Positions 48 to 52,269 of a DNA stretch of 64,000 nt are shown piece by piece. The stretch is from Bacteriovorax stolpii (GTDB lineage: Bacteria > Bdellovibrionota > Bacteriovoracia > Bacteriovoracales > Bacteriovoracaceae). Every line of letters starts with the position of its first letter. Position 1 is the first letter of the stretch. The translations under genes and the position numbers were made by a program. Location of the stretch: assembly GCA_945860895.1 (NCBI GenBank), contig CAMASK010000004.1, forward strand, positions 11,390-75,389, read 5' to 3'. The notes below the pieces were generated by a model. That model saw only the letters and a program-made list of their open reading frames with translations, was not told the origin of the DNA and ran no database searches.

Positions 48-230
48 TTAGTGACGGTTAATCATTTTTCTTCCAGTGACCATACTTGCAATAAAACTGA
101 TCACAGCAAGTATCAGAAAGACGAAGAGCAATGTCTTACCGATATCCATCGATAATCCACCGACCCCATTAGCACCTAACAAGATCGCAACCAAGCCTAA
201 AACAAAAAAAGCAATTGCTGCTCGTAACAT
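48..230 (-). CDS. DUF1328 (UPF0391/YtjA-like) small membrane stress protein
   Basis: MLRAAIAFFVLGLVAILLGANGVGGLSMDIGKTLLFVFLILAVISF two-TM pattern. RBS AGGAGAG precedes ATG at 230, so the ORF-track start at 260 is probably too far upstream. Confidence 0.85.
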   Translation of the reverse strand: MLRAAIAFFVLGLVAILLGANGVGGLSMDIGKTLLFVFLILAVISFIASMVTGRKMINRH

Positions 231-278
231 AAACTCTCTCCTTGTAATGTCAGAGATCAAATCTCTTGTAAGACTTCT

Positions 279-294
279 GTCATTTAATGTGCCA
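279..294 (-). promoter_or_regulatory. imperfect sigma54-type -24/-12 motif upstream of DUF1328 gene
   Basis: Minus strand TGGCACATTAAATGAC: strong -24 (TGGCAC), but GA instead of GC at -12; about 40 nt upstream of the RBS. Confidence 0.4.
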
Positions 295-384
295 ATAATT
301 ACACCTTGAAAAATTAGGTAGTTACCAAATTCATTTCATTTTAAAGGGGCATTCTACCTCTCGAAATTATCCATTTTGACTCAC

Positions 385-633
385 TCATTTCGTTTTCAAT
401 GGTGATCGATTCTTAAAAGTATTTTCCAATTTGTTTTTTAAAAGATCATAACCTTCTGCAAGATCTTCTCTTAATTTAAAAATATCATCTCGGATAACTT
501 TTGCTTGTTCGTTTAAGTTTTTATCATTCAAAACTTTTTCACTTTCTTCACGTTTATTTTTCTTTGCATTAGTAGCTAAAACTTTGGCAGCATGTGCTCT
601 TCTGTTATTGTCGATTAACTTGGTTGTCGTCAT
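385..633 (-). CDS. small helical hypothetical protein, weakly ElaB/YqjD (DUF883)-like but without a C-terminal TM anchor
   Basis: Strong RBS GGAGGA before ATG at 633 (MTTTKLIDNN); charged amphipathic segment IRDDIFKLREDLAEGYDLLKNKL. Confidence 0.7.
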   Translation of the reverse strand: MTTTKLIDNNRRAHAAKVLATNAKKNKREESEKVLNDKNLNEQAKVIRDDIFKLREDLAEGYDLLKNKLENTFKNRSPLKTK

Positions 634-677
634 CGAATCCTCCTTTTTATGAATTGAATTTCCTTTTTTATATTTTC

Positions 678-693
678 TGCAAAGTCGGGACCA
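678..693 (-). promoter_or_regulatory. sigma54-type -24/-12 promoter for the 385..633 gene
   Basis: Minus strand TGGTCCCGACTTTGCA (GG-N10-GC, TTGCA at -12), about 35 nt upstream of the RBS. Confidence 0.6.
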
Positions 694-710
694 CACATTT
701 ACTTTTGTTT

Positions 711-726
711 TGGCACTTTATATGCA
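711..726 (+). promoter_or_regulatory. sigma54-type -24/-12 promoter for csbD-like gene
   Basis: TGGCACTTTATATGCA, near-consensus TGGCAC-N7-TGCA. RBS GGGAGGA at 746-752, ATG at 755. Confidence 0.7.
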
Positions 727-754
727 AATTTAAATTTCATAACCGGGAGGATTT

Positions 755-1108
755 ATGCTTTCTTCAAGTCAAATCAAAGGAAAATGGGCAGAGATTAAAG
801 GCGGAGTAAGAAATTTATGGGGTGAAATTACAGAAGATGAGATTGAGCAGACCAAAGGTAATCTGTACTCTCTTACAGGGATCGTTCAACAAAAATATGG
901 AGAATCTAAGGAGAGCATAATACAAAAATTAGATCGTTTAATCACATCTTTTGATAATGAAACTGATAAAAGTTTAAAGATCAATGATGGCGAAGCATCT
1001 TATCAAAGAAACCCAACAGGGGTAAGATCGCAAAATTTAAATCAAGTAGACACAGATGAAATATACAATGAGAGTCGGCCTTCAGAGGATCGTATTAGTC
1101 GTCACTAA
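755..1108 (+). CDS. CsbD/YjbJ family general stress protein with hydrophilic C-terminal extension
   Basis: QIKGKWAEIKGGVRNLWGEITEDEIEQTKGNLYSLTGIVQQKYG matches the CsbD/YjbJ pattern; strong RBS. Confidence 0.9.
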   Translation: MLSSSQIKGKWAEIKGGVRNLWGEITEDEIEQTKGNLYSLTGIVQQKYGESKESIIQKLDRLITSFDNETDKSLKINDGEASYQRNPTGVRSQNLNQVDTDEIYNESRPSEDRISRH

Positions 1109-1862
1109 GTATTTTAGTAAGATAACAGTATTTTCTAATTACCATTTGTAGATTTAAAGAATCTTTTTTAAAGCCAAAATAAGGTACAAAAGAATAATTT
1201 TCTTTTACATGCTTTAAAAATTTTTGTCCTCTTTCATAATTCAATAACCTGGTATCTAAGGGATGGTTACTATCAATCAATCTTAGAGCATAGCCATTCG
1301 CTACCGTCTTCATATCTAAAATCAAAAAAGCATGTGAGGAAACACCCTTGATTTGGGCCATGATCCATACAGGAGTGGGTGAGTTTTGAAATTGAGCGTA
1401 TAAAATATCCATTCTTGCGATCATGTCATCTGAACTTAATTCAGATCTACCAGATATTCCTCTAAGCCATTGCTGATTTAAAAATCCATCTTCTCTTTGC
1501 CAAGCCTCCAGAAATTGCTGAACTTCCTTGGAAAAAAAATTAGTAAAAGAATTGAAATCTTCAAAACCGGGTATTACAACAACTGACTTCATTGCCTTAA
1601 TTTTTTTGAGTATTTTAATGGCCTCTTCAGAAGTTGGTATACTCATCTTAGGTTCAAATTCTACCAAATAGGCTGATGATCTTTGTAATCTGGAATGCCA
1701 CCAACAAACTCCGCCATTCAATAGGCCACCATGATTTTTAAAATTAATTCTTGAAGTGCTATCTTCTAGGTAATTGCTGATTCCTCCTTCAATTCTCTGG
1801 CACAAGGTTTGAGCACTGGATTCTAAAGACGCCAAGATCAAGAAAAAAAAGAATAATTTCAT
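1095..1862 (-). CDS. secreted hypothetical protein, possible papain-like Cys-His-Asp fold
   Basis: Signal peptide MKLFFFFLILASLESSA from ATG 1862; motifs GGVCWWHSR, SSHAFLI, LIDSN. The ORF-track extension to 2006 overlaps the SET gene and is unlikely. Confidence 0.7.
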   Translation of the reverse strand: MKLFFFFLILASLESSAQTLCQRIEGGISNYLEDSTSRINFKNHGGLLNGGVCWWHSRLQRSSAYLVEFEPKMSIPTSEEAIKILKKIKAMKSVVVIPGFEDFNSFTNFFSKEVQQFLEAWQREDGFLNQQWLRGISGRSELSSDDMIARMDILYAQFQNSPTPVWIMAQIKGVSSHAFLILDMKTVANGYALRLIDSNHPLDTRLLNYERGQKFLKHVKENYSFVPYFGFKKDSLNLQMVIRKYCYLTKILSDD

Positions 1863-1868
1863 GCCAAA

Positions 1869-1897
1869 AGCATAGAAAAATACAAGAAGGATGACAA
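1869..1897 (-). promoter_or_regulatory. sigma70-type promoter, probably leaderless
   Basis: TTGTCA-17nt-TATGCT followed 6 nt later by ATG 1862; no RBS. Confidence 0.6.
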
Positions 1898-1918
1898 ATT
1901 TTCGTTTAAGATAATTCA

Positions 1919-2506
1919 ATGCTCCATCCTCACACAGAATTAAAATTTGTTTCAGAAGAAATTGGATATGGGATATTCGCAACTTGCCGCATCCCCATTG
2001 GAACAATTATGTGGGTTAAGGATGAGCTAGATAGAATAATCCTGAAAGAAGATCTATCCAAACTGACTCCTGCCAATCTTGAAAATTTAATGAAATATTC
2101 ATATCGCAATTCTCTGGGTAACTTTGTTTTCTGTTGGGATCTTACTCGATACGTGAATCATAGCTATCATCCAAATTCAATCCTGACGCCATTGGGCTTT
2201 GAAATATCAGTCAGGGATATTGAGCCAGGGGAAGAAATTACAAATGACTATGGAACCTTGAATATCATTGAACCATTTCAATGCGCCAATGGTCCTGCTC
2301 ATGAAAGAGAATTTGTCTGTCCTGATGACCTGTCCCGCCATTATAAAGTTTGGGATGAACAGATTCGACTGGCCTTTAAATTGATTAGCACAGTGGACCA
2401 ACCCTTACAGAAGTTTTTAACTCACCTTCAAAATGATGAGATTAGTTTAATTAACCGGGGTGAAGCAATGATCCCATCGGTTTTAAATAATCTGTATCGA
2501 CTTTAA
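1919..2506 (+). CDS. SET domain protein-lysine methyltransferase
   Basis: GYGIFAT (SAM motif I), YVNHSYHPN (NHSCxPN motif), GEEITNDYG (EELxxDY motif). Confidence 0.88.
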   Translation: MLHPHTELKFVSEEIGYGIFATCRIPIGTIMWVKDELDRIILKEDLSKLTPANLENLMKYSYRNSLGNFVFCWDLTRYVNHSYHPNSILTPLGFEISVRDIEPGEEITNDYGTLNIIEPFQCANGPAHEREFVCPDDLSRHYKVWDEQIRLAFKLISTVDQPLQKFLTHLQNDEISLINRGEAMIPSVLNNLYRL

Positions 2507-2530
2507 CTGTCTTTTCACCTTGTTAATTTT

Positions 2531-2546
2531 TGGCATGTTTTATGCT
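2531..2546 (+). promoter_or_regulatory. sigma54-type -24/-12 promoter
   Basis: TGGCATGTTTTATGCT (GG-N10-GC), followed by RBS-like GAGGT at 2564-2568. Confidence 0.6.
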
Positions 2547-2566
2547 AATTTACCTCACAAATAGAG

Positions 2567-2785
2567 GTGTGCATCATAGAACAAGACAAAGAAAAATCAC
2601 ACACTCAGCACCATGGAGCCCATAGTGGGACGAGGAAAGGTATTTCTGACTATAATGATGGAGGAGATCTTTCCCATTATGGGGGAAATGATGACATTCA
2701 TAAACAAGACCCTGAATCAGCCAATAAAACTAAAAGTGATGAAATCGGAAAAATTGCTTACGGTAATGATAACGAAGATGGATAA
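2567..2785 (+). CDS. small hydrophilic (His/Gly/Asp-rich) hypothetical protein, start uncertain
   Basis: Open frame EQDKEKSHTQHHGAHSG...GNDNEDG behind a sigma54 motif and GAGGT. The GTG start lies inside the RBS; the best-spaced codon is ATA at 2576. Confidence 0.45.
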   Translation: MCIIEQDKEKSHTQHHGAHSGTRKGISDYNDGGDLSHYGGNDDIHKQDPESANKTKSDEIGKIAYGNDNEDG

Positions 2786-2790
2786 CAGTT

Positions 2791-3612
2791 TTATAAAACC
2801 ATGTCGCTAATAAGATAATCTCTAAAGTATTTAACTTCAGTTGCTAATCCTATGGCATTAAGTTTTCTTCTCGAATTTAAATCGTATGATGAATCAACAG
2901 TGGATGCGCTTCCGCCCCAAATTACCCCAATAACTTCACCCCGATTATTAAGGGCCGGACTTCCGGAATTACCGCTAATAATAGGACAATTTTCCAAAAA
3001 AAGAGAAGCCCTTTCATTTTCATCCACTACTGTGCAGGAAAATTCAGTAATCCTCGAATCTAGTAAATTGCCAGGTATACTATCTAGTCCAGTCTGATCA
3101 ATTACCCATGTAGAAATTAAATCATCTGCTACTGCGGGAGTATCTGCGAGGAGAAAAAAATCGTCTGAATAATTATCAGTGATTTCCATTACCGTAAAAT
3201 CTAGTTTTCGATTTGGATCGTTTGGGTCGCCTATGTCTTCAATGGTTTTAACTATTGACTTGCATTTAGTTTGCATGTGATTACTACCTGTATAAATAGC
3301 AAGATATGTATTGGAACATTGTTGCTGAGTTGCCACGCAATGGTGGTTAGTAACAAGTCTAGAAGTAGAAATCATGAACCCTGTACATACAGATGATCGA
3401 TCCGGTTTCACTTTATTAATAATGAAAATTCTTGCTATCCCATTTGGACAAATTCCACCTAGTGAAGCACATTCAAAATTTTGATTTTTTAAAACTTCTT
3501 GAATTTCTAATTCAGTAATTAAGGGTTTAGGTTTGTTTGAATCATTGGTCTTTCCACAAGAATAACTTGAAACCAAAAATATAAATAATGCAACATGGGA
3601 AATGGTCTTCAT
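2791..3612 (-). CDS. trypsin-like (S1) serine protease, lipoprotein
   Basis: Catalytic motifs TNHHC, LDFTVME, GNSGSP; lipobox SSYSC in the signal peptide; RBS AGAGG. Confidence 0.9.
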   Translation of the reverse strand: MKTISHVALFIFLVSSYSCGKTNDSNKPKPLITELEIQEVLKNQNFECASLGGICPNGIARIFIINKVKPDRSSVCTGFMISTSRLVTNHHCVATQQQCSNTYLAIYTGSNHMQTKCKSIVKTIEDIGDPNDPNRKLDFTVMEITDNYSDDFFLLADTPAVADDLISTWVIDQTGLDSIPGNLLDSRITEFSCTVVDENERASLFLENCPIISGNSGSPALNNRGEVIGVIWGGSASTVDSSYDLNSRRKLNAIGLATEVKYFRDYLISDMVL

Positions 3613-3846
3613 CGGTTACCTCTCTTTGAGAATAAAGGTAACTTGAAGAGTCAATCATCACTAAGAGCGAGATTTAATGATTTTTTATGCGGGTAAACAT
3701 ATGTTCGAATTTTCGCGGCATCGTAAGTTTTACAACGCATCCACGCTTTCCGATTTTGGAAATCTCTTTTGAAAAAATTGATATTGATGTCGCATCAATG
3801 AAACTTACCTCCGTCAAATCAATGTGGATTTCATGTTGATGAAAAA

Positions 3847-4146
3847 ATGCAAGAGCTTATGAATTTAATCGACAATGCCATTGATTATAGTCCCCAAGGT
3901 AAAACCATCGACATCTTTCTCACTTTTCAAAGCCCAAATTTAATTATCAAAATAAAAGACAATGGCCCAGGTATTTCAGAGGAAATGCTACCTAGGTTAT
4001 TTGTTCGATTTGCCAGAGGAAGTAATAATAAGCTCAAAGGTACTGGCTTAGGTCTTTCCATTACTAAAAAGATTATTGAAATGCACAAAGGAGAAATAAG
4101 TTTAGTGGAATATAAAAATGGAACAACATTTCAAATCATTCTTTAA
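3847..4146 (+). pseudogene. stand-alone histidine kinase ATPase (HATPase_c) domain, probably a truncated sensor kinase
   Basis: N box NLIDNAIDY, G1 DNGPGI, F box LFVRF, G2 GTGLGLSI. In-frame TGA at 3799-3801 excludes an upstream HisKA or sensor domain. Confidence 0.6.
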
Positions 4147-26469: not shown

Positions 26470-27240
26470 TTAGTGGTGTGACTCATGCTCACCATGATCG
26501 TGGTGTGCAGTGGCCATTCCAATATAGATCATTGTTAATAGTGTAAATACGAAAGCTTGTAAAAAACTTACGAAAAGACCCATTCCATAAAAAGGAATTG
26601 GAACTAAGTAGGGAACCAGATCAGAGAAAATTCCTAAGATCAAATGGTCACCGTCCATGTTTCCGCGAAGACGAAGTGCCAGTGAAAGTGGTCTTACTGA
26701 AATAGAGATAATTTCGATTGGAAAAATAAGAAGAGCAAGTGCTGGCATTGGACCTGCAAAATGCTTTAAGTAATTAACGATCCCAACAGCTTTTATACCC
26801 TGATAGTTAAAATATAAGAATGTGAAAATACCAAGAGCAAGTGTTGTATTTAAATTTTGGTTGGGAGACATTGATCCAGGAAAAACCCCAAGGATGTTGT
26901 TAATCAAGATGAAGCAGAAAACGAAGATTACATATGAGAAGTAGCGTTTGGCACTTTCTTCACCCATAACAGACTTGGCAGTGTCATACATAGCCTGACC
27001 CAAAGACTCTACAATATTTCTAAGTGAGATACCTTTATCTGGGATTGTTGCATTTTTAAGACCAGAAACTTTTGCACGATAGAATAAACCAACAACCAAA
27101 AACATGATTGAACCGAAGATTAATGCAAGTGTATGAGCTGGAAGGTGAGTCGCGTGTGAGGCATTAGTGAAGAAATTATAGCCACCGCTCGCCCAAACTG
27201 AATTGGTGAAAAGTAATGCAATTAAATACAAGTATTTCAT
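26470..27240 (-). CDS. atpB: ATP synthase F0 subunit a
   Basis: NNILGVFPG, PIEIIS, RPLSLALRL, LQAFVFTLLTMIYI. Confidence 0.95.
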   Translation of the reverse strand: MKYLYLIALLFTNSVWASGGYNFFTNASHATHLPAHTLALIFGSIMFLVVGLFYRAKVSGLKNATIPDKGISLRNIVESLGQAMYDTAKSVMGEESAKRYFSYVIFVFCFILINNILGVFPGSMSPNQNLNTTLALGIFTFLYFNYQGIKAVGIVNYLKHFAGPMPALALLIFPIEIISISVRPLSLALRLRGNMDGDHLILGIFSDLVPYLVPIPFYGMGLFVSFLQAFVFTLLTMIYIGMATAHHDHGEHESHH

Positions 27241-36330: not shown

Positions 36331-37935
36331 CTAGAGTTGTTTTTCTATATCCAGAACTTGTTGTGCCAACAGCATTTCAACTTTAATCCGATCCCTGATG
36401 GTATTAATAGCATGAAGAACGGTTGAATGGTCACGGCCACCAAAGTAGTGTCCATTTTCTTTTAACGTGGGTTTTATAAGCTTATTTATAAGATACATGG
36501 CAACTTGTCGGGGAAGTGCAACTTCCTTAGTCTTTGCCTTTCCACGTATATCGCCTATAGGAATTTTAAAAAAGGTACTTACTGTCTTTGTTATAGATTC
36601 AATTGTAATGTGCTTTTGATTTTCAAGTTCATCACTTAAATTTAAATGCTCTTTAGCGACTTCAAGATCAATATCAACTTTCAATATAGAAGTGACAGCA
36701 CCTAGCTTAATTAAGCAGCCTTCTAGTTCTCTGATATTACTCTTTACGCATTTTGCGATCAGTGTAACAACCTCGTCACTTAAATATATGTCTTTTTCAA
36801 TTGCTTTCTTTTTAAGAATGGCAATTCTAGTTTCTAAATCCGGCTGTTGAATTTCAACAGGCAAAGCCGATGAAAGGCGAGTACGAATCCTATCTTCAAT
36901 TCCATCAATTTCTTTTGGTGGTTTGTCAGAAGTAAAGACCAGTTGTTTGCCTTTTTCCATGAGTTCATTGAAAATATGGAAAAACTGATCTTGAGTACCA
37001 GTACGATTTTTTAATTCATGAATATCATCAATTATAAGAACGTCTGTTTTTTCCACATATTTTTGTCGAAATTCTGTGAATTTTTGATCCCGGATTGCCT
37101 GGATCATTTCATTCATAAATTTATTGGCCGAAGTCATACAGATACGAATACTTGGTCGAGAATTTTGAATACTGTTTGCAATAGCGTGAACCAAATGGGT
37201 TTTGCCTAAACCTGAATTTCCGTAAACATAGAGAGCAGGGTAAGTTTTTCCCGGATCTTTCGCTACGGCCATTGCTAGAGCATTGGCTATGTTATTAGAT
37301 GGTCCAATAATAAAGTTTGAAAAAGTTTTGTTAGTATCAATTTGCGCCGAAACCGTTGAGGATAGGTGTTCAAGAACCTGAGAATCTACTGCTTTAAAAA
37401 GATCATCTTTGGTTGGAGCTAAATCTTGAATGAAGAAAGTAGAGCTTTTAACAGTTTCTACTTTCTTAGTACTTTTAATAGAATTTAAAATGCTTTCATC
37501 ATTAGAAATCATTGGTTTTGCACTTCCGAGAACCTGAATATCCACTTGATATTCCTTCCCAAGAATTTCCATTAAGGCTTGCTTAATCGTCTCTATATAA
37601 TGAGTCTCCACCATCTTTTTAATAAAGCTGGTAGTGACCACGAATTCTACTGTATTCTGGCTAATTGCCGAAACTGTTAAGGTATTAGCAAAATAAGCAT
37701 GGTATTTATTAGCATTAATTAGGCTTTTAATGTGATCCAAGAGTGCTTCAGTAATTGTCTTCAATTCATCTATTGAAAATTCAGGGGATATTTTTGGAGT
37801 TCCAATGTTCAAAGTCTTTAAAGTTTGCTCAACGATTACTGGGGAAGCCGGTATTTGTGCCTTTCTGTTTGCAGATTGCAGCTCGTTAAGGCTATCTAGT
37901 TTCAAGAAATGATCAAATGGGAACTTTTGTGTCAT
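36331..37935 (-). CDS. dnaA: chromosomal replication initiator DnaA with N-terminal extension
   Basis: YPALYVYGNSGLGKTHL, LIIDDI, RLSSAL, SNIRELEG, RQVAMYL, GGRDHSTVLHA. Confidence 0.98.
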   Translation of the reverse strand: MTQKFPFDHFLKLDSLNELQSANRKAQIPASPVIVEQTLKTLNIGTPKISPEFSIDELKTITEALLDHIKSLINANKYHAYFANTLTVSAISQNTVEFVVTTSFIKKMVETHYIETIKQALMEILGKEYQVDIQVLGSAKPMISNDESILNSIKSTKKVETVKSSTFFIQDLAPTKDDLFKAVDSQVLEHLSSTVSAQIDTNKTFSNFIIGPSNNIANALAMAVAKDPGKTYPALYVYGNSGLGKTHLVHAIANSIQNSRPSIRICMTSANKFMNEMIQAIRDQKFTEFRQKYVEKTDVLIIDDIHELKNRTGTQDQFFHIFNELMEKGKQLVFTSDKPPKEIDGIEDRIRTRLSSALPVEIQQPDLETRIAILKKKAIEKDIYLSDEVVTLIAKCVKSNIRELEGCLIKLGAVTSILKVDIDLEVAKEHLNLSDELENQKHITIESITKTVSTFFKIPIGDIRGKAKTKEVALPRQVAMYLINKLIKPTLKENGHYFGGRDHSTVLHAINTIRDRIKVEMLLAQQVLDIEKQL

Positions 37936-38133
37936 TGATCCTACAAATTTGGTTGAGTTTAATTAAAAAAGTCTGAATGAAGTAACACTCCCCAAATTCA
38001 AATTCAATCTTTGGCCTCTAACAAGACCTTACTCTGACGCTTTGGTTTACAAAAATTATTGACTCCATTTCCTTTTTACCGTAGATAATGATTTCCCAAA
38101 AACATACAAAGTACCTTTTCGAGGAAGAATCAT

Positions 38134-38292
38134 ATGAGTATGCAAAAAAGAACCTGGCAACCAAAGAAAGTTAAGAGACTCCGTGATCACGGCTTCCTTG
38201 CTAGAATGTCTTCAGTTGGCGGTAAAAAAGTAATCGCTCGTCGTCGTGCTAAAGGTCGTAAGAGCCTTTCAGTATCAACTGGCGCTAAGTAA
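38134..38292 (+). CDS. rpmH: 50S ribosomal protein L34 (missing from the ORF track)
   Basis: [52 protein letters not shown]; RBS GAGGAAG. Confidence 0.96.
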
Positions 38293-38299
38293 GTAATAG

Positions 38300-38659
38300 A
38301 TGACCGAAGAAGCACTTTTCGGCTTACCTAAAACTCTTAAAATTACTAAAAAAAAAGATTTCGAACACCTTCGAGAGCAGAGCCAACGTGGCTTTGCTCA
38401 TCCGTTGGTTTGTTTCTATAAGCCAACTTTAAGCCAATCTGGTTCGGCTCGTTTTGCTTTAAGCGTTTCCCGTAAAATAGGTAAGTCTCACGATCGTAAC
38501 CGCTACAAGCGTCTTTTAAAGGAAGCTTTTCGCTTACATCCTAAAATTCGCAAACAACCCTTAGATATGATGTTCGTGATTATTAAGACTCCTGATAGTG
38601 AGGAACAGCTTTTAAACGCCTTTTCTAAGGTGTCCAATTATCTTTGCAGTGCGAAATGA
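38300..38659 (+). CDS. rnpA: ribonuclease P protein component
   Basis: [25 protein letters not shown] (RNR motif); rpmH-rnpA synteny. Confidence 0.93.
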
Positions 38660-38865
38660 AAAAGTTAGCTGATCTTTTTATTCGTTTCTATCAATTTTTT
38701 ATTTCGCCACTTTTGGGTCCGCGCTGCCGGTTCTATCCGAGCTGCTCGCAATATTCACGAGAATGCTTTAAGAAGTTTTCCTTCCCTAAAGCTTTGTGGT
38801 ATTCATCGAAGCGAATTTGCAAATGTCATCCGTATCATCCTGGAGGGGTAGATCTTATACCCTAA
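38656..38865 (+). CDS. yidD: membrane protein insertion efficiency factor
   Basis: [36 protein letters not shown]; ATG 38656 overlaps the rnpA stop. Confidence 0.95.
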
Positions 38866-38889
38866 TCCTATGTCTTTATTGGAGAAAAA

Positions 38890-40350
38890 ATGGGTTCCGA
38901 GCAAAAAAATGCCTTTCTAGCGATCTCTCTTTCTGCCGTGATTTTATTCGGATGGCAGTACTATTTCGCGCCTAAAAAATTAGCTGATGCCCCCATAGAG
39001 GCACCTATTACGACTCAAGCCGAAAAAGAGGGAAAACCGAATATAACTCCAGCAGCTGGTCCTATAGAACCAGTAGTATCTGAAGCTTCCCGGTTCACGT
39101 TAAATCGCGGGGAAGTGTCTGTTACTTTTGATAATAATCTCATTATTAATGATTTTAAAAATCCACAAGCTGCATTTGGTTTTGCCGATACCGTTGGCTC
39201 AACTAAACCATTTAAAATCGAATTTGATTTTGGACAAGGCTTTACTTCTGCCAATGTTGCTCAGGCTGGTGATAACAAATTTTACGATGCAACTCATGAC
39301 TTAACAGTAACCACTTCTCTCGATGAGAAAGGCGCTGCTACTTTTAATGTAACTTCTCCGAAGGCTTTCCGTTATCGCATGTTATTTGTAAGTGAAGCAA
39401 AAAAACTCGAGAACGGTCAGCAACGCTTTTTCGATATCTATACTGACTCTCTAACACATCTTGATATTAATGATGAAGATTCAAAAGATCAGGCGATAAA
39501 GTGGGCAGGTATTGATTTTAACTATCATCTATTCGGAGTTTATTTCGAAAAAGAGACAAATTTAATCTATAAAAATTCCACTAACTCTACTCTTAGTATT
39601 CATTCAAACAAGTCTGAGAATGCAGTTAGCTTTAGCACAGTTTTTGTAAAAAAAGACTATGATTATCTAGCACAGCTAGGTCATAAACTTCAGAATTCTG
39701 TCGACTTCGGAATTTGGGGCTTTTTTGCGGTTTGGATTCTAAAAGGTCTTCAATTTTTCTATACATGGTTCCCTAATTACGGGATTTCAATTATTCTTCT
39801 GACTTTCCTAATTCGAATGATTACTTTTCCTCTTCAGTATAAATCAATAGTCTCAATGAAAAAGTTACAATTAGTTCAGCCTGAACTCACCAAAATTCGT
39901 GAGAAATTCAAAGATGATCCACAAAGAATGCAGAAGGAAAGCATGGAGCTTTTCAAGAAATCTGGGGCTAATCCTATTGGTGGATGCCTTCCTTTAATTC
40001 TTCAGATGCCTGTGTTTTTTGCTTTCTATAAGGTGCTAAATCACTCGGTAGAATTAGTGGGTGCTCCATTCATGTTATGGATCTATGATCTTTCAAATAA
40101 AGATCCTTATTATGTACTTCCAGTACTCATGACAATTGCTATGTTTCTACAGCAGAAGCTGACTCCGAATACTATTTCTGACCCTGTTCAAAAGAAAGTT
40201 ATGTTGTTCATGCCAGTAGTGTTTGGCTTCATTATGAAGGATCTTCCTTCAGGTCTAAGTTTGTACATTTTTGTATCAACTATCCTGGGCATTCTTCAGC
40301 AGGTATTTGTTTTCAACTCTAAGAAGAGTACTGATCCTGTAGTGGTATGA
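38890..40350 (+). CDS. yidC: membrane protein insertase YidC
   Basis: NYGISIILLTFLIR, NPIGGCLPLILQMPVFFAFY, DLSNKDPYYVLP, PSGLSLY. Confidence 0.97.
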   Translation: MGSEQKNAFLAISLSAVILFGWQYYFAPKKLADAPIEAPITTQAEKEGKPNITPAAGPIEPVVSEASRFTLNRGEVSVTFDNNLIINDFKNPQAAFGFADTVGSTKPFKIEFDFGQGFTSANVAQAGDNKFYDATHDLTVTTSLDEKGAATFNVTSPKAFRYRMLFVSEAKKLENGQQRFFDIYTDSLTHLDINDEDSKDQAIKWAGIDFNYHLFGVYFEKETNLIYKNSTNSTLSIHSNKSENAVSFSTVFVKKDYDYLAQLGHKLQNSVDFGIWGFFAVWILKGLQFFYTWFPNYGISIILLTFLIRMITFPLQYKSIVSMKKLQLVQPELTKIREKFKDDPQRMQKESMELFKKSGANPIGGCLPLILQMPVFFAFYKVLNHSVELVGAPFMLWIYDLSNKDPYYVLPVLMTIAMFLQQKLTPNTISDPVQKKVMLFMPVVFGFIMKDLPSGLSLYIFVSTILGILQQVFVFNSKKSTDPVVV

Positions 40351-41714
40351 AGTTTCTTTATTCGGATGAACCGATCATTGCCAGCAGTACATGCAATCAT
40401 GCTAATGCAGCTTTGGCGGTTATCCGAATCTCTGGTTTCAAGCACTTATCTCAATTTTTAACTTTTTTTAGTCATTCTGGTCCTATAGAACCAAGACGTG
40501 TTTATTACACCAAATTCATCTCAGGATCAGAAGTTCTAGATGATATCTGCCTTACTTATTTTGAAGGCCCAAAATCTTATAACGGCGAAAATATTCTCGA
40601 GCTTTCAATTCACGGAAACACACTCAATACGGAAAGAATTTTAAAATTCTTTATCGAGCACGCCGGCTGCAGGTTGGCTGCACCTGGTGAATTCACTTAT
40701 CGTGCTTTAAAAAATAAAAAACTTACACTATCTCAAGTTGAAGGTTTAGATTTATTTCTCAACGCTAATTCTGGATACGCTCTTGATCAAGGTCTATCTT
40801 TATTGAGTGGAAATCTTCAGGAAATTTATTCTGAACTTTATGATCTTTTTTTAAAACATAAATCGGCTCTCGAATTATCTATCGATTTTATCGATGACGT
40901 AGGGGAAGCGACTGCTAAAGGTTATTTTGATTCTTCATTGGAGAATTTTAAAAATAAATTTGAAACTCTACATCGTAGAGTTATTCCCATGGAGCATAAT
41001 TTATTACAACCAGAGCTTGTGATTGCGGGCTTACCGAATTCTGGAAAAAGTTCTTTATTTAATTTTATTTTGCGTGATGAGCGCGCGATCGTTTCTTCGA
41101 TTGCAGGTACTACTCGCGATTATCTTTCTGAAACGCTAGTTATAGAGGGTGTAAAATATAAATTGATTGATACTGCTGGAATAAGAGATGCCAGTGATGT
41201 GATTGAGGCAGAGGGAATTAAACGCACTAAACAGAAAATGCAGCATAGTTTTTTCTCAATTCTACTCGTAAATCCATTTGAGATGCGTGAAGAATTTATG
41301 GAACTTTCACAGCTAAAATTTGATGTTGTATATTTTACCCATGCCGATCTTCCTGGTTTTGATGCTGCAAAAAATAGTGTTTTAAAAATTTACCCACAAT
41401 TTGGTTCTATAGGGGCGATTTCCCTCACTAAAAACATCCACCATTTTGAAAAAGAACTGACGGATTCTATAAATATAAAATACTTATCTGTTACCAAAGA
41501 TAAACCAATTTTATTGGACAGGCATAAGTCATTGATATCACAAGTGAGTAGTCAGCTGATTATTTATGAAAAATTAGTTACTTACGAGACGGATGTAGCG
41601 ATTCTCTCCTCTGAATTAAATATCTTAGCCTCTTGTCTATCAGAGCTCCTAGGTATAGTTTCACCCGATCAAATCCTAAATTCTATTTTTTCAAATTTCT
41701 GTATTGGAAAATAG
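40347..41714 (+). CDS. mnmE: tRNA modification GTPase MnmE
   Basis: GPKSYNGE, PGEFTYRA, GLPNSGKSS, AGTTRD, DTAG, C-terminal FCIGK. Confidence 0.95.
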   Translation: MKFLYSDEPIIASSTCNHANAALAVIRISGFKHLSQFLTFFSHSGPIEPRRVYYTKFISGSEVLDDICLTYFEGPKSYNGENILELSIHGNTLNTERILKFFIEHAGCRLAAPGEFTYRALKNKKLTLSQVEGLDLFLNANSGYALDQGLSLLSGNLQEIYSELYDLFLKHKSALELSIDFIDDVGEATAKGYFDSSLENFKNKFETLHRRVIPMEHNLLQPELVIAGLPNSGKSSLFNFILRDERAIVSSIAGTTRDYLSETLVIEGVKYKLIDTAGIRDASDVIEAEGIKRTKQKMQHSFFSILLVNPFEMREEFMELSQLKFDVVYFTHADLPGFDAAKNSVLKIYPQFGSIGAISLTKNIHHFEKELTDSINIKYLSVTKDKPILLDRHKSLISQVSSQLIIYEKLVTYETDVAILSSELNILASCLSELLGIVSPDQILNSIFSNFCIGK

Positions 41715-46053: not shown

Positions 46054-46389
46054 TTGGCTAAAAAAAATGATATTTGTGCCATTATTGAAGAAGGTTGCAA
46101 GTTTGAAGGTAACCTTTCATTTAGCGGTACAGTGCGTATCGCTGGTTATGTTAACGGTAGTATTTTTTCCAATGACACGCTGATTATTTCTGAGGGTGCT
46201 GTCATTAACGCAGATATTAACGCAAATATCGTAATTATTTCAGGATCAGTGAAAGGAACTATTAAAGCCTCTTCTCGAGTAGAAATTAGACGCCCTGCAA
46301 GATTTGAGGGAACTGTGACATCCCCGAGTTTAATTGTAGAAGAAGGCGTTATTTTCCACGGTATTACTAAGATGAAAGACAAAAAATAG
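46054..46389 (+). CDS. bactofilin (polymer-forming cytoskeletal protein)
   Basis: IIEEGCKFEGNLSFSGTVRIAGYVNGSI...VKGTIKASSRVEI...FEGTV beta-helix pattern; TTG start with GGGG RBS. Confidence 0.92.
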   Translation: MAKKNDICAIIEEGCKFEGNLSFSGTVRIAGYVNGSIFSNDTLIISEGAVINADINANIVIISGSVKGTIKASSRVEIRRPARFEGTVTSPSLIVEEGVIFHGITKMKDKK

Positions 46390-46401
46390 TACCCAAATTT
46401 C

Positions 46402-46430
46402 TTGACTGTATAGACCCCTACGCTTAAAAA
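46402..46430 (+). promoter_or_regulatory. possible sigma70 promoter for atpF'
   Basis: TTGACT-17nt-TAAAAA in the bactofilin-atpF' gap. Confidence 0.45.
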
Positions 46431-46470
46431 ATTATCTAAATTAAATTCAATCCAAATCCAAGGTATGTTT

Positions 46471-46902
46471 ATGGAAATATTCACACAATTAGGTGTCGAC
46501 TCGTCGCTTACTTACCAATTCGTCATTTTGGTTGTTGTTTTTATTCTCGCTAATTTTATTTTCTTAGGAAAACTTCAAGAAGTTCTTGAAGTAAGGGAAG
46601 AAAAAACGGTTAAGCTTGAAAATTCTGCTGATGAAATTATTGAGAAAGTTTCAAATATGCAGAGTGAATATAAAATAAAAATTGATGAAGCCAATCGCGT
46701 TGCACTTAAAGTTTCTACTGATAAAAAACAATCGATTACTCAAAAATATACTGACCAGTACAAACAATCTGAAAAAGAAGTGAATCATTTAGTGGATACA
46801 GCTCGCAATGAATTCAGCAAAGAAATTGCTGGAAATAAAACGAAGTATCTTGCCGAGTCTGAAGCTTTGGCTGAAACTCTCGTTCAGAAAATTGTTCAAT
46901 AA
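46471..46902 (+). CDS. ATP synthase F0 subunit b'
   Basis: N-terminal TM followed by coiled coil; first of two b-type genes. RBS AAGGT favours ATG 46471 over 46465. Confidence 0.88.
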   Translation: MEIFTQLGVDSSLTYQFVILVVVFILANFIFLGKLQEVLEVREEKTVKLENSADEIIEKVSNMQSEYKIKIDEANRVALKVSTDKKQSITQKYTDQYKQSEKEVNHLVDTARNEFSKEIAGNKTKYLAESEALAETLVQKIVQ

Positions 46903-46913
46903 GGATATAAGAT

Positions 46914-47462
46914 ATGCGTTTTTGGACTGCTTACGCTTTTATTGCTCTTAGTGTTGTTGCGAAAGCCCACGGGTCAGATGGTGGAGAACACCACACACCC
47001 TCTCTCTCAAGCTTAATTGCACCAACTATCAACGTTGCCATTCTTTTTGCTGTTTTGATTTATTTTACAAAAGATAAGTTGAAAGGTTACTTTATTTCTA
47101 AGTCAGATCAAGTTGCCAATACTCTTGACCGCGCTAACATCAAATCTAAAGAAGCACAACTCATGCTTGATACTCAAAAGCGTAAGATGGCCAATCTTGA
47201 AACAGAAGTAAAAAACATCAACCAGCAAACTGAAACTGATGTTTTAACTTATAAAAAGAAGCTTTCAAAAGATGTGGAAGATAAGATTGGAAAGCTTAAA
47301 GTTGATGCTGCCTCAAAAGTTCAAGCTGATAAAAAAGCCATGATGAATGATTTGAACGCTGAACTTCTTGAGCAAGTAATTGCGAAAACAAAATCAACAA
47401 TCAAAAACAATAAAGATTTCCAAGGAAAAGTTTCTTCGAAAATGTTGCAAGGATTACAATAA
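46914..47462 (+). CDS. atpF: ATP synthase F0 subunit b
   Basis: INVAILFAVLIYFTKDKL TM, long coiled coil; N-terminal extension with His patch. Confidence 0.9.
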   Translation: MRFWTAYAFIALSVVAKAHGSDGGEHHTPSLSSLIAPTINVAILFAVLIYFTKDKLKGYFISKSDQVANTLDRANIKSKEAQLMLDTQKRKMANLETEVKNINQQTETDVLTYKKKLSKDVEDKIGKLKVDAASKVQADKKAMMNDLNAELLEQVIAKTKSTIKNNKDFQGKVSSKMLQGLQ

Positions 47463-48001
47463 TGAAAGAGCAATTAGTTGCAAAAGTTTACGCCAAATCA
47501 ATTCTTGAACTTGGTGATGATCAGAATCTAAAGATTGCTGATGAAATGATCAAATTAACTGAAGTGATAAATAAGTCTAATGATCTTGAGAACGTTTTGT
47601 TTTTAGACGTTTTCACGATGGAAGAAAAGAAGGCTATTTTTATTGAAGTAGCTAAAAAGCTTTCACTTTCAACGCTTGCCACTGAAGCTGTTAAATACTT
47701 AATCGATGAAAAACGAATTGGAATTCTTCCTCTCATAATTAAAGAAATCATCGTTATTGATGATGAGAGAAGAGGTTTCATGAAAGGAACGATTGAAGGC
47801 AATAGTGCTGAAATTGATCCTGTTTTTAAAACAAAAATTGAAACATTTCTGAAGAAAAAAATTGGTCGTGAGCCACAATTGTCTTACATTCAAAACTCTA
47901 AAATCAGTGCTGGTTATAAAGTGACTGTTGAAGATCTTCAGCTAGATGCTTCTATAGATAATCAATTAGAACAATTTAAACAATCAATTCTTAGCGAATA
48001 A
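47462..48001 (+). CDS. atpH: ATP synthase F1 delta subunit
   Basis: VAKVYAKSIL, LIDEKRIGILP, QLDASIDNQL; position before atpA. Confidence 0.92.
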   Translation: MKEQLVAKVYAKSILELGDDQNLKIADEMIKLTEVINKSNDLENVLFLDVFTMEEKKAIFIEVAKKLSLSTLATEAVKYLIDEKRIGILPLIIKEIIVIDDERRGFMKGTIEGNSAEIDPVFKTKIETFLKKKIGREPQLSYIQNSKISAGYKVTVEDLQLDASIDNQLEQFKQSILSE

Positions 48002-48026
48002 TAAACCCTAAAGGGAAGGAACTCTG

Positions 48027-49541
48027 ATGACTACATCAATTAGACCTGAAGAAATTACAGGAATCATCAAAGAGCGCATTGCAAACTTTGAATCGCGCCT
48101 TCAGATGAATGAAATTGGAACAGTACTAACCATCGGTGATGGTGTGGCCCGCGTTTTTGGTCTTAAAAACGTTCTTGCCGGCGAGCTTGTTGAGTTCGAA
48201 GGCGGAGTTAAGGGAATGGTACTTAACCTTGAAACCAACAACGTTGGAATCGTGGTTCTAGGTGAAGATGCAAAAATTAAAGAAGGTTCAACTGTTAAGC
48301 GCACTGAAAAAATCGTTTCAGTTCCAGTTGGTAACGCTCTTCTTGGCCGCGTAGTTAACGCTATCGGTGAGCCAATTGACGGTGCCGGTGAAATTAACAC
48401 AAAAGAATTTCGTAACGTTGAAATTAAAGCTCCAGGAATTATTGCTCGTAAATCAGTTCACGAGCCAATGCAGACTGGTATTAAAGCCATCGATGCTATG
48501 ATTCCAATCGGTCGTGGTCAACGTGAACTTATCATTGGTGACCGTAAGACTGGTAAAACAGCTGTGGCCATCGACACCATCATCAACCAAAAAGGTAAAG
48601 ATGTTGTGTGTGTTTACGTAGCTATCGGTCAGAAACAATCTACAGTTCGTCAGGTTTACCAGAAACTAATGGAAGCCGGCGCTCTAGAGTATACAATCAT
48701 CGTTTCAGCTACTGCTTCTCACTCAGCTCCACTTCAGTATCTAGCTCCGTACACTGGTTGTACAATGGGTGAGTACTACCGTGACCAAGGTAAGCACGCT
48801 TTGATCGTTTATGATGATTTAACAAAACAATCACAAGCTTACCGTCAGCTTTCTCTTCTTCTTCGTCGTCCACCAGGCCGTGAAGCTTTCCCTGGAGACG
48901 TATTCTACATTCACTCACGTCTTTTAGAGCGTGCATGTAAAGTTAACGATGCTTTGGGTGGTGGTTCATTAACAGCTCTTCCAATTATCGAAACTCAAGA
49001 GGGTGACGTTGCTGCTTACATTCCTACAAACGTAATTTCGATTACTGATGGTCAGATCTACCTTGAGTCGGATTTATTCAATTCTGGTATTCGTCCAGCG
49101 GTAAACGTGGGTCTTTCAGTTTCTCGAGTGGGTGGTGCTGCACAAGTTAAAGCCATGAAAAAAGTTGCTGGTACACTTCGTCTGGATCTTGCTCAGTACC
49201 GTGAACTTGCAGCTTTTGCTCAGTTCGGTTCTGACCTAGATGAAGCGACTCAGAGACAGCTTAACCGTGGTGCTCGTTTAGTAGAACTTCTTAAGCAAGC
49301 TCAGTACTCACCAATGGATGTTATCGATCAATCTGTAAGTATCTTCGCTGCTACTAAAGGTTATTTCGATTCAATTCCTGTTAACAAAATCCGTAATGCT
49401 GAAGCTGATCTTCACTCTTCTTTACACTCACGTAATGGTGACTTAATGAAGACGATGAAAGCTGAAAACCAAATGTCACCTGAAAGTGAGTCTAAATTGG
49501 TTGAAGCAATTAAGGCTTTCGTTAGTAGCTATAAGGTTTAA
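48027..49541 (+). CDS. atpA: ATP synthase F1 alpha subunit
   Basis: [34 protein letters not shown]. Confidence 0.99.
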
Positions 49542-49559
49542 TTTTAAGGATTAAAGAAA

Positions 49560-50429
49560 ATGGCAAATATTAAAGAACTCAAGAAAAAGATCAAGAGTAC
49601 CAAAGGTACTTTTAAGATCACAAAGGCGATGAAGCTTGTTTCAGCTGCGAAGCTAAGCAAAGCTCAAATCCGCATCTTGGGTCTTCGTCCATATTCAACT
49701 GAGCTAGAAGGAACTGTTCGTACAGTTTCAGCTTTGGCCCAGAACTACACCAATGAATATTTCTTACCTAAGAATAATAAACAAGCTGTAGTACTGGTTG
49801 TTTCTTCTGATAAAGGCCTTTGCGGAGGATATAATTCATCTCTGGCAAAGAACGTAAGAAGATTCATCGGTGAAAACAAAGATGAAGATCTTAAATTTTT
49901 ATGGATTGGTAAAAAAGTCAGAGACCTTATTTCTAAGGAAGTAAATTCTGGCAAAACTTATACTTTCTCTAAAAACGAAGCTTCTTATGATGAAGTGAGA
50001 AAGATTGCGGAAGAGCTAGGTAGTTTATTTATCAATGGAGAAATTGGAAAAGTGTACATTGCGTATAACTCTTTCGTTTCCGCTATTGCTTTCGATTCTA
50101 TCGTTAGACAACTTCTACCAATGCAGGTATCTGCTTCAGTAAAAGAAGAAATTAAGACTAAGTATCCATACGATTTTAAATACGATCCAAGTGCAGAAGA
50201 AATTCTTGATACATTGGTTCCTGAAGTTTACCTCACAACAGTTTATACCTGTATTTGTGATGCTATCGCTTCGGAACACGGAAGTCGTATGAACGCTATG
50301 GAAAACGCGTCTAAGAACAGTAAAGAAGTGATTAAGAAGCTTTCGTTAAAAATGAATAAGTTGAGACAGGCAAAAATTACAACTGAGTTAATCGAAGTTG
50401 TTTCTGGTGCCGAGTCTCTGAACGGTTAA
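49560..50429 (+). CDS. atpG: ATP synthase F1 gamma subunit
   Basis: KITKAMKLVSAAK, SDKGLCGGYN, SEHGSRMNAM, RQAKITTELIEVVSGA. Confidence 0.98.
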   Translation: MANIKELKKKIKSTKGTFKITKAMKLVSAAKLSKAQIRILGLRPYSTELEGTVRTVSALAQNYTNEYFLPKNNKQAVVLVVSSDKGLCGGYNSSLAKNVRRFIGENKDEDLKFLWIGKKVRDLISKEVNSGKTYTFSKNEASYDEVRKIAEELGSLFINGEIGKVYIAYNSFVSAIAFDSIVRQLLPMQVSASVKEEIKTKYPYDFKYDPSAEEILDTLVPEVYLTTVYTCICDAIASEHGSRMNAMENASKNSKEVIKKLSLKMNKLRQAKITTELIEVVSGAESLNG

Positions 50430-50440
50430 GGAGCCATTAA

Positions 50441-51856
<1,416 letters not shown>

Positions 51857-51858
51857 TT

Positions 51859-52269
51859 ATGGCCGGTTTTAAACTCAATATTTTCACTCCTAAGGGAGTA
51901 GTAATTAAAGATCTTGAGTGTAATGACATCGTAATACCTACAGTCAGGGGAGAGATTAATATCCTCCCTGAACATACTCATATCTTAACTGAATTGAGTA
52001 CAGGGCTTATGACAGTTAAAACTTCAATGGGAGCTCGTCACTATTCAGTGACTGCAGGTCTTTGCCGAGTTTTAAAAGATACCGTAACTATTCTTTCATT
52101 CACTTCTGAAAGAGCCGAAGATATCGATATGGAAAGAGCGAAGTCTGCAAAGTCAAAAGCTACTGACCGTCTATCTGGAAAAGTATCTCTTAGTGATGTG
52201 GACCTAATTAAGTTCCGCAGAAAGCTTGAAAGAGCTGAACTACGAATTCGACTCGCAAATTTGAAATAA
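51859..52269 (+). CDS. atpC: ATP synthase F1 epsilon subunit
   Basis: GEINILPEHT, C-terminal helix pair ending ELRIRLA. Confidence 0.95.
   Translation: MAGFKLNIFTPKGVVIKDLECNDIVIPTVRGEINILPEHTHILTELSTGLMTVKTSMGARHYSVTAGLCRVLKDTVTILSFTSERAEDIDMERAKSAKSKATDRLSGKVSLSDVDLIKFRRKLERAELRIRLANLK

Follow-up and report, generated by a model that had tools for sequence, protein, structure and literature searches.

We describe a cluster of small genes at the left end of a 64,000-nucleotide stretch of DNA from Bacteriovorax stolpii (GenBank assembly GCA_945860895.1, contig CAMASK010000004.1, positions 11,390 to 75,389 of the forward strand), referred to here as the window. Genes for a CsbD-like protein, a DUF1328 protein, an 82-residue helical protein and a 72-residue hydrophilic protein are each preceded by a motif of the sigma-54 -24/-12 type. 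In our judgement the region is probably the right-hand portion of a sigma-54 regulon islet that is conserved in the order Bacteriovoracales, and its likeliest activator is the enhancer-binding protein (EBP) of the NtrC family encoded in the same islet. We infer that RpoN recognizes the motifs, that the adjacent EBP acts as their activator and that the cue is one of stress or non-growth.

Sigma-54-type motifs in orthologous loci

The initial annotation quoted four 16-mers, one in front of each small gene, and read them as sigma-54 promoters. All four are present exactly as quoted. The GG-N10-GC spacing is exact at 711-726, 678-693 and 2531-2546, and at 279-294 this strain carries GA in place of the GC. 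The putative promoters of the csbD-like gene and the 82-residue gene do face away from each other across a gap of 17 bp, and a ribosome-binding site (RBS) of the GGAG or GAGG type is found before each small gene, in agreement with the strong RBSs that had been claimed.

Sites in the window were scored with an approximate sigma-54 position weight matrix (PWM), and the highest score, 15.7 bits, belongs to the motif in front of the 72-residue open reading frame (ORF). Seven sites reach at least 12.05 bits, the score of 678-693, which is the weakest of the three good motifs of the annotation, and three of these seven are correctly oriented and precede a start codon by 20-60 nt (P ~2.6e-4). This probability was computed after the fact, and independent evidence was therefore sought in related sequences.

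From 56 homologues, aligned as A1, of the CsbD-like protein we arrived at 80 genomic loci, which were fetched. The neighbourhood is orthologous to that of the window in 22 of them, from the Bacteriovoracaceae, the Halobacteriovoraceae and Peredibacter. The motif shared by these Bacteriovoracales loci is TGGCAY-N6-TGCW, with GG-N10-GC spacing, and it is always oriented towards its gene. A site of at least 11 bits is located 23-51 nt before the ATG in 23 of 25 csbD copies and 35-52 nt before the ATG in 23 of 28 DUF1328 copies, and the motif is present upstream of the orthologue of the helical protein gene in all 23 loci; taken over the three genes, its distance to the gene is 23-52 nt in almost all genomes. 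On the sense strand the motif is absent from control genes of the islet, namely those for the SET-domain protein (0/13), the trypsin-like peptidase (0/10) and the 255-residue secreted protein (0/3). It is likewise absent before the small Cys-pair gene behind DUF1328 (0/16) and before the Hpt gene (0/15), and is found before the EBP gene in one of 17 cases. A lack of conservation in orthologous loci had been named at the outset as a result that would speak against the promoters; the motifs are conserved there.

The 82 sites that were tabulated all have G-25, G-24, T-14 and G-13, and C-12 and T-26 are found in 80 and 77 of them, respectively. Position -21 is a pyrimidine in every site, -23 is C or T, -22 is A or C and -11 is A or T in 68 sites. 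The extended consensus TGGCAC-N5-TTGCW is conserved in these orthologous promoters, the bases at the six positions of the spacer are close to random and the flanking intergenic DNA is unalignable between genomes. A spacing control over 219,744 nt gave 77 matches with an N6 spacer, 47 of which are followed by an RBS and an ORF; spacers of N3-N5 and N7-N9 gave 0-8 matches each, of which no more than one precedes an ORF. An invariant core, a random spacer and enrichment at N6 only mark the sigma-54 -24/-12 promoter class and are not known in combination from any other. Core invariance, N10 spacing and constant orientation thus support the assignment of one such promoter to each small gene.

The promoters fall into classes that differ in detail. 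Sites of the helical class follow the consensus TGGTMY-N5-TTTGCA or TGGCAY-N5-TTGCW and have T at both -15 and -14 in all 21 tabulated cases; position -15 is class-specific, being T in the helical class and A in the csbD class. At the 678-693 site the one substitution seen in relatives, T to C at 685, falls within the spacer. The back-to-back arrangement of the csbD and helical promoters is kept in most genomes, with gaps of 4-30 bp, and where the gap is 4-7 bp closed complexes on the two promoters would probably compete for DNA.

Motif-bearing paralogues of csbD and DUF1328, and Cys-pair proteins, are also encoded elsewhere, in loci L006, L012, L014, L032, L034 and L036. The distribution of the motifs shows a putative regulon that is compact, with a few dispersed paralogues, and not a global response. 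Motifs of the -24/-12 type are seen before DUF1328, csbD and Cys-pair genes in six Bdellovibrionales loci from Bdellovibrio- and Pseudobdellovibrio-like genomes (L029, L030, L051, L055, L062 and L066), and in loci L022-L025 and L028 csbD lies directly behind an upstream ORF and has no motif. A sigma-28-like (CCGATA) promoter was considered for csbD of Bdellovibrio and Pseudobdellovibrio and rejected, as the block is the 3' end of the upstream ORF (…SFPISF, then stop).

The adjacent candidate activator and the structured RNA

Contigs L087-L089, which are 95.8-99.1% identical to the window, extend leftwards with the same islet genes and place an NtrC-family response regulator gene and an Hpt gene ~1.7-3.2 kb beyond the left end of the window. 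The order in orthologous loci is EBP (+), Hpt (-), methyltransferase (+), small Cys-pair (-), DUF1328 (-), helical (-) and csbD (+). The EBP is part of the islet in 20 of the 22 distant orthologous loci, and in the remaining two the contig is too short to reach its expected position. A search just left of the window for an NtrC-family gene, as suggested by the initial annotation, is thus borne out by its close relatives and by the order at large. The accompanying proposal of an activator encoded elsewhere was wrong in detail, since the EBP, which would act on these promoters, is in the same islet. No EBP was found among the large ORFs tested within the window itself (dnaA, yidC, mnmE, DNA ligase, radA-like, glpK-like, serS and others).

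The EBP of locus L012 (L012:182-1576) matches Response_reg (8.7e-28), Sigma54_activat (2.5e-71), AAA_lid_14 and, as a C-terminal helix-turn-helix of the Fis type, HTH_8 in Pfam. The same REC-Sigma54_activat-HTH_8 domains are present in the EBP of L087 and L088, and a GAFTGA loop is readable in the sequence. A split gene in L089 was considered and rejected; the apparent break is a scaffold gap filled with N and no frameshift. At 81-91% identity across the order the EBP has the highest conservation among the large islet proteins, matched only by the 60-residue DUF1328 protein, whose orthologues in related loci are 80-98% identical. It scores below the cutoff of every named NCBIfam equivalog, the best being AtoC with 450 bits against 714, and so belongs to no named EBP orthogroup. 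In the Bdellovibrionales loci L030 and L051 an EBP of 51-53% identity is encoded beside csbD/DUF1328.

Sigma-54 promoters are silent until an AAA+ EBP remodels the closed complex. Two further motifs of this type flank the EBP/Hpt pair and face outward (antisense matches in 14/17 and 13/15 loci). One of them serves, depending on the genome, a 40-residue membrane peptide, a DUF1328 paralogue or a Cys-pair protein; the other is placed between the Hpt and methyltransferase genes. Upstream of the DUF1328 promoter there is a conserved, non-palindromic element with the consensus GGRAWK-nn-YRCCCC, found in 17 loci and always 50-53 nt from the -24 TGG. Similar blocks also precede the promoters of the RNA/methyltransferase unit and of the 72-residue ORF, and the element is a candidate binding site for the activator or for a co-regulator.

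A conserved RNA of 130-190 nt lies directly 3' of the motif between the Hpt and methyltransferase genes, outside the window. It has three helices: GCUAAC pairs over a long range with GUUAGC, a hairpin lies inside, and another hairpin, followed by a U-rich tail, resembles a terminator. The stretch ACCUGCA is invariant. In 12 sequences 94.8% of the cells are paired and compensatory changes are found at 14 of the 21 pairs; none of 500 shuffles reached these values and slid controls paired at most 42%. No Rfam match was obtained for this RNA, and an Rfam scan of the window and loci returned tRNAs only. We regard it as a candidate either for a small RNA (sRNA) that depends on the EBP and sigma-54 or for a cis-acting leader of the methyltransferase gene.

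There may be a second sRNA in four genomes, where an extra sigma-54-type motif stands between the helical and csbD promoters and is followed by ~190 nt with no conserved ORF. The four sequences share UGUGUCGGGC, UAGCUG…CAGCUA and a GC hairpin, and display almost no covariation. At the position of this region locus L015 has an ORF of 68 residues.

We propose the following arrangement. A putative hybrid kinase would supply a phosphoryl group to Hpt, which would pass it to the NtrC-family regulator, and the regulator would then activate five to six small protein genes and the structured RNA in an all-or-none manner. Each small gene would form its own transcription unit behind a -24/-12 promoter of the form TGGCAY-N5-nTGCW. 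The predicted units are DUF1328 with the downstream gene for a 60-residue protein, the 82-residue helical protein and the CsbD-like protein, with a further one, for a His/Gly/Asp-rich protein of 70 residues, in this genus.

Gene content and strain-level variation

The first 3.6 kb of the window hold, in this order, the genes for the DUF1328, 82-residue, CsbD-like, 255-residue secreted, SET-domain, 72-residue and trypsin-like proteins (Table 1). The sequence is from a lake-water metagenome assembly and has a low GC content of 35-41%; the nearest named relatives are metagenome-assembled genomes (MAGs) of the Bacteriovoracaceae. The SET, trypsin-like and 255-residue secreted protein genes (1095-3612) keep their place beside the islet in many genomes and have no sigma-54 motif.

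Table 1. Genes, predicted promoters and candidate regulatory elements of the islet. Positions are those of the window unless a locus is named; transcription start sites (TSS) are predicted.
Feature	Sequence	Position	Strand	Remarks
DUF1328 (YtjA-like) small membrane protein gene		48-230	minus	60 aa, Pfam
82-aa single-helix protein gene		385-633	minus	
CsbD-like gene		755-1108	plus	117 aa, Pfam CsbD
255-aa secreted protein gene		1095-1862	minus	
SET-domain protein gene		1919-2506	plus	
Small His/Gly/Asp-rich hydrophilic ORF		2567-2785	plus	72 aa
Trypsin-like peptidase gene		2791-3612	minus	
csbD-like promoter, sigma-54-type	TGGCACTTTATATGCA	711-726	plus	ATG 28 nt on; TSS ~738
82-aa gene promoter, sigma-54-type	TGGTCCCGACTTTGCA	678-693	minus	ATG (633) 44 nt on; TSS ~666
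72-aa ORF promoter, sigma-54-type	TGGCATGTTTTATGCT	2531-2546	plus	TSS ~2558
DUF1328 promoter, sigma-54-type	TGGCACATTAAATGAC	279-294	minus	GA for GC at -12; ATG (230) 48 nt on; TSS ~267
Conserved upstream element, consensus GGRAWK-nn-YRCCCC	GGTAGAATGCCCC	346-358	minus	Ends 51 nt upstream of DUF1328 TGG
Structured RNA		L087:6385-6569	minus	~1.0-1.2 kb left of window position 1
Structured RNA		L001:1975-2160; L012:2002-2170		Also in 9 other loci
Extra motif with ~190 nt, possible second sRNA		L005:814-1049; L007:3771-3945; L008:437-620; L009:3766-3958		

The initial annotation placed the small proteins in families typical of stress regulons. For two of them Pfam agrees: CsbD is identified with 45.3 bits (cutoff 40; 7.9e-12) and DUF1328 with 36.2 bits (cutoff 27; 7.5e-9), and for the DUF1328 protein the NCBIfam PRK13682 models give matches below cutoff only (best 4.3e-13, 49.1 bits, cutoff 52). 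The CsbD-like protein carries a lineage-specific C-terminal extension, SFDNETDKSLKxNDGESSYQRNPT. The assignment of the 82-residue protein to ElaB/YqjD (DUF883) was rejected, since neither the window protein nor any of 18 orthologues gave a match in Pfam, DUF883/ElaB included, or in PDB. An alignment of 19 orthologues (A2) defines the family core QYxIIREDILKLREDLxKGYD, seen so far in the Bacteriovoracales only. An AlphaFold model from the single sequence consists of one helix, residues 3-75, with a predicted local distance difference test score (pLDDT) of 91.5.

The fourth 16-mer had been listed with GA at -12. Its position is that of the orthologous DUF1328 promoter, and the GA is a change at strain level, GC being present in close relatives. 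The 97% identical contig L087 reads TGGCACAATAAATGCC at this promoter, with GC at -12, and in the related population X2 a T-to-G change at window position 280 restores the GC. The GA is kept in X1, the window's own population, in X5 and X6 and in L088 and L089. To judge from these comparisons the -12 element of a real, otherwise conserved promoter has been altered in this strain, and the change would be expected to weaken that promoter. Locus L007 has an independent -12 variant, TGTA, at its DUF1328 promoter.

The 72-residue ORF has six homologues of 61-99% identity and no family name; the core is HTQHHGAHSG…SDYNDGG…SHYGGNDD. A TGGCAY-N6-TGCT motif is found ~30-33 nt before the ATG in the four homologue contigs that extend far enough upstream, L081, L082, L084 and L085, of which L084 and L085 are identical at this locus, so that three independent contigs carry it. 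By this comparison the ORF is a real, narrowly distributed gene with a conserved motif as its predicted promoter. At the start of the gene L087 reads ATCATGGAA, with ATG, and the window reads ATCATAGAA, with ATA at 2576-2578; L089, which is 99% identical, also has ATA. The start of the gene in the window is uncertain because the canonical ATG has become ATA. The proteins of the window, L087 and L089 lack the C-terminal …EDYGKSHSGL tail of more distant homologues, and the ATG-to-ATA change may mark decay of the gene in the window's strain. Two outputs of the putative regulon look weakened in the sequenced strain, DUF1328 through the GC-to-GA change at -12 and the 72-residue protein through its start codon.

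Several features of the rest of the window were noted. With dnaA, yidC and mnmE at 36331-41714 it appears to span the chromosomal origin region, the islet being ~35 kb from dnaA, and ORFs at 46054-52269 resemble an ATP synthase operon, judged by their sizes and order alone. Similarity to L087 stops at ~3835, where L087 continues with a SulP-family transporter. The window has there a 99-residue ORF (3847-4146) that looks like a lone histidine-kinase ATP-binding domain (HATPase_c), in which the N, G1 and G2 boxes can be recognized; tRNA genes come next. The segment ~3835-4146 represents either the junction of a rearrangement or what is left of a gene. A site at 26743-26758 (+), TGGCATTGGACCTGCA, scores 14.8 bits and is probably fortuitous; an ORF of the minus strand encloses it, and on the plus strand no gene follows.

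Alternative explanations and known systems

A number of observations weigh against a sigma-54 regulon controlled by the adjacent EBP. Judged by Markov shuffles of the window, there is no enrichment of sites of at least 13 bits (3 observed, 2.8 expected; 16 against 9.5 for at least 11 bits), and the count of motifs is at chance level. Position -15 of the csbD class is A and not the canonical T. In the loci compared no enhancer was identified for the csbD and helical promoters, and their gap of 4-30 bp leaves no room for one between them. A palindrome further upstream, GAGTCA-N3-TGACTC, considered as a common enhancer, is found in only seven loci and at the DUF1328 promoter only, and the IHF consensus is matched in the A/T-rich block upstream in 4/23 and 4/17 promoters. 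The rpoN gene was found neither in the 64-kb window nor in any of the other contigs and loci examined. It has been reported in Halobacteriovorax marinus SJ (PMC3526173), in Peredibacter (PMC13147790) and, as bd0843, in B. bacteriovorus (PMC3464611).

No RNA runs holding the window or L004 were found. Two soil metatranscriptomes include contigs at least 99% identical to the helical ORF and the DUF1328/Cys-pair genes of Peredibacter sp. HCB2-198 (L012), from which it follows that these genes are transcribed in nature. The contigs exclude the neighbouring larger genes, and they stop at ORF boundaries, short of the predicted 5' ends. A full-text search of the literature returned no link of sigma-54 with csbD or DUF1328 and no description of the islet in Bdellovibrio-like organisms, and the promoter map of B. 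bacteriovorus reports a FliA-type attack-phase consensus only (PMC3627812).

One could accept the sigma-54 promoters and yet doubt that the adjacent EBP is their activator, or their sole one; other EBPs would then act on them and the adjacent protein would control the RNA/methyltransferase unit or unrelated genes. We consider this unlikely. It would explain why no upstream activator site common to all promoter classes was found and why motif-bearing csbD and DUF1328 paralogues in L032, L034 and L036 have no EBP within 4 kb, and many EBPs are usual in Deltaproteobacteria-like lineages. The importance of sigma-54 in this group has also been noted (PMC3526173). It would not explain the synteny of the EBP with five sigma-54 units in 20 distant genomes, the occurrence of an EBP of 51-53% identity beside csbD/DUF1328 in L030 and L051, or the presence of sigma-54 promoters on both sides of the EBP/Hpt pair.

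The nature of the 16-mer itself can also be disputed. Many sites of the DUF1328 class come close to a perfect palindrome, as do TGGCATGAGACATGCCA and TGGCATTAATCATGCCA, and seven score at least 11 bits on both strands, as might be expected if the 16-mer were the operator of a dimeric transcription factor, a TGGCA-N6-TGCCA palindrome on sigma-70 promoters. This is very improbable. The csbD (…ATGCT), helical (TGGTCT…TTTGCA) and RNA/methyltransferase classes are non-palindromic and their asymmetry excludes a palindromic operator for them; the T of TGG and the -21 pyrimidine have no partner in the other half, the orientation is constant, the sites stand as far from the start codon as promoters would, and the EBP encoded alongside has sigma-54 activation as its only known role. 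Still less credit can be given to functionless chance matches in AT-rich intergenic DNA, even with three strong sites in the window against 2.8 expected and an equally strong one, 26743-26758, inside a gene on the opposite strand. The core is invariant though the csbD proteins are just 45-65% identical and the intergenic DNA is unalignable, the spacing control gave 77 matches against 0-8, and the placement probability is ~2.6e-4. The comparative data effectively refute this explanation.

A regulon of sigma-54 promoters under the adjacent EBP thus remains our preferred interpretation. What it is for is a separate matter. The label of a general stress or dormancy response, which the initial annotation used, is borrowed solely from the roles of CsbD and DUF1328 homologues in E. 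coli, Bacillus and alphaproteobacteria, and the link to attack-phase survival is speculation. It is conceivable, though rather unlikely, that the Bacteriovoracales, and possibly much of the Bdellovibrionota, have no general stress sigma factor of the RpoS, SigB or EcfG type and employ the phosphorelay, sigma-54 and the structured RNA as a master switch for a compact set of small protective proteins that would let non-growing attack-phase or starved predator cells survive.

Our interest in the islet has several grounds. CsbD, DUF1328 and similar proteins are among the most widespread members of stress regulons of unknown function, and for long parts of their life Bdellovibrio-like predators hunt without growing, a state in which the regulation of survival is little known. 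The islet offers a concrete circuit of one response regulator, one Hpt, five to six predicted sigma-54 promoters and a single candidate small RNA. Its conservation extends from freshwater MAGs to Peredibacter, which is in culture, and the circuit is hence testable in a cultured strain. The same gene families would be placed under an activator-gated type of promoter, unlike in model organisms, and this bears on how stress regulons are rewired between phyla.

Local stress regulons in which an EBP acts with sigma-54 are known in E. coli, namely PspF-psp, ZraR-zraP and RtcR-rtcBA. In D. vulgaris the EBP DVU3305 has been assigned to 'general stress response, transmembrane transport' (PMC4641369). 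The islet is like these systems in having an EBP gene beside a handful of -24/-12 promoters and small stress-associated outputs, and the REC-AAA+-HTH order of its EBP is that of ZraR, NtrC and AtoC. It differs in its predicted targets, which are CsbD, DUF1328, an orphan helical protein, Cys-pair peptides and a structured RNA, in having one promoter per tiny gene instead of one operon, and in an input that would arrive via a stand-alone Hpt. We therefore regard the islet as a well-supported comparative prediction of a previously undescribed regulon of unusual gene content and familiar design, with a neighbouring EBP and small stress-related outputs.

The sRNAs CrcZ of Pseudomonas (CbrB-CrcZ), Qrr of Vibrio (LuxO-Qrr) and GlmY of enterobacteria (GlrR-GlmY) are encoded next to an EBP and depend on sigma-54. 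The islet RNA likewise follows a -24/-12 motif beside the EBP/Hpt pair and ends in a terminator-like hairpin; unlike them, it is directly upstream of a methyltransferase gene, and it has no relationship to them in sequence or in Rfam.

CsbD and DUF1328 proteins belong to general-stress regulons governed by RpoS (yjbJ and ytjA of E. coli), SigB (csbD of B. subtilis) and EcfG. The islet has the CsbD/YjbJ and DUF1328/YtjA families in common with these regulons, small proteins of an abundant type whose biochemical role is unknown. Its promoters, in contrast, are of the -24/-12 type that needs an ATPase activator and not of the -35/-10 type read by a factor of the sigma-70 family, and its predicted wiring covers only a compact set of genes.

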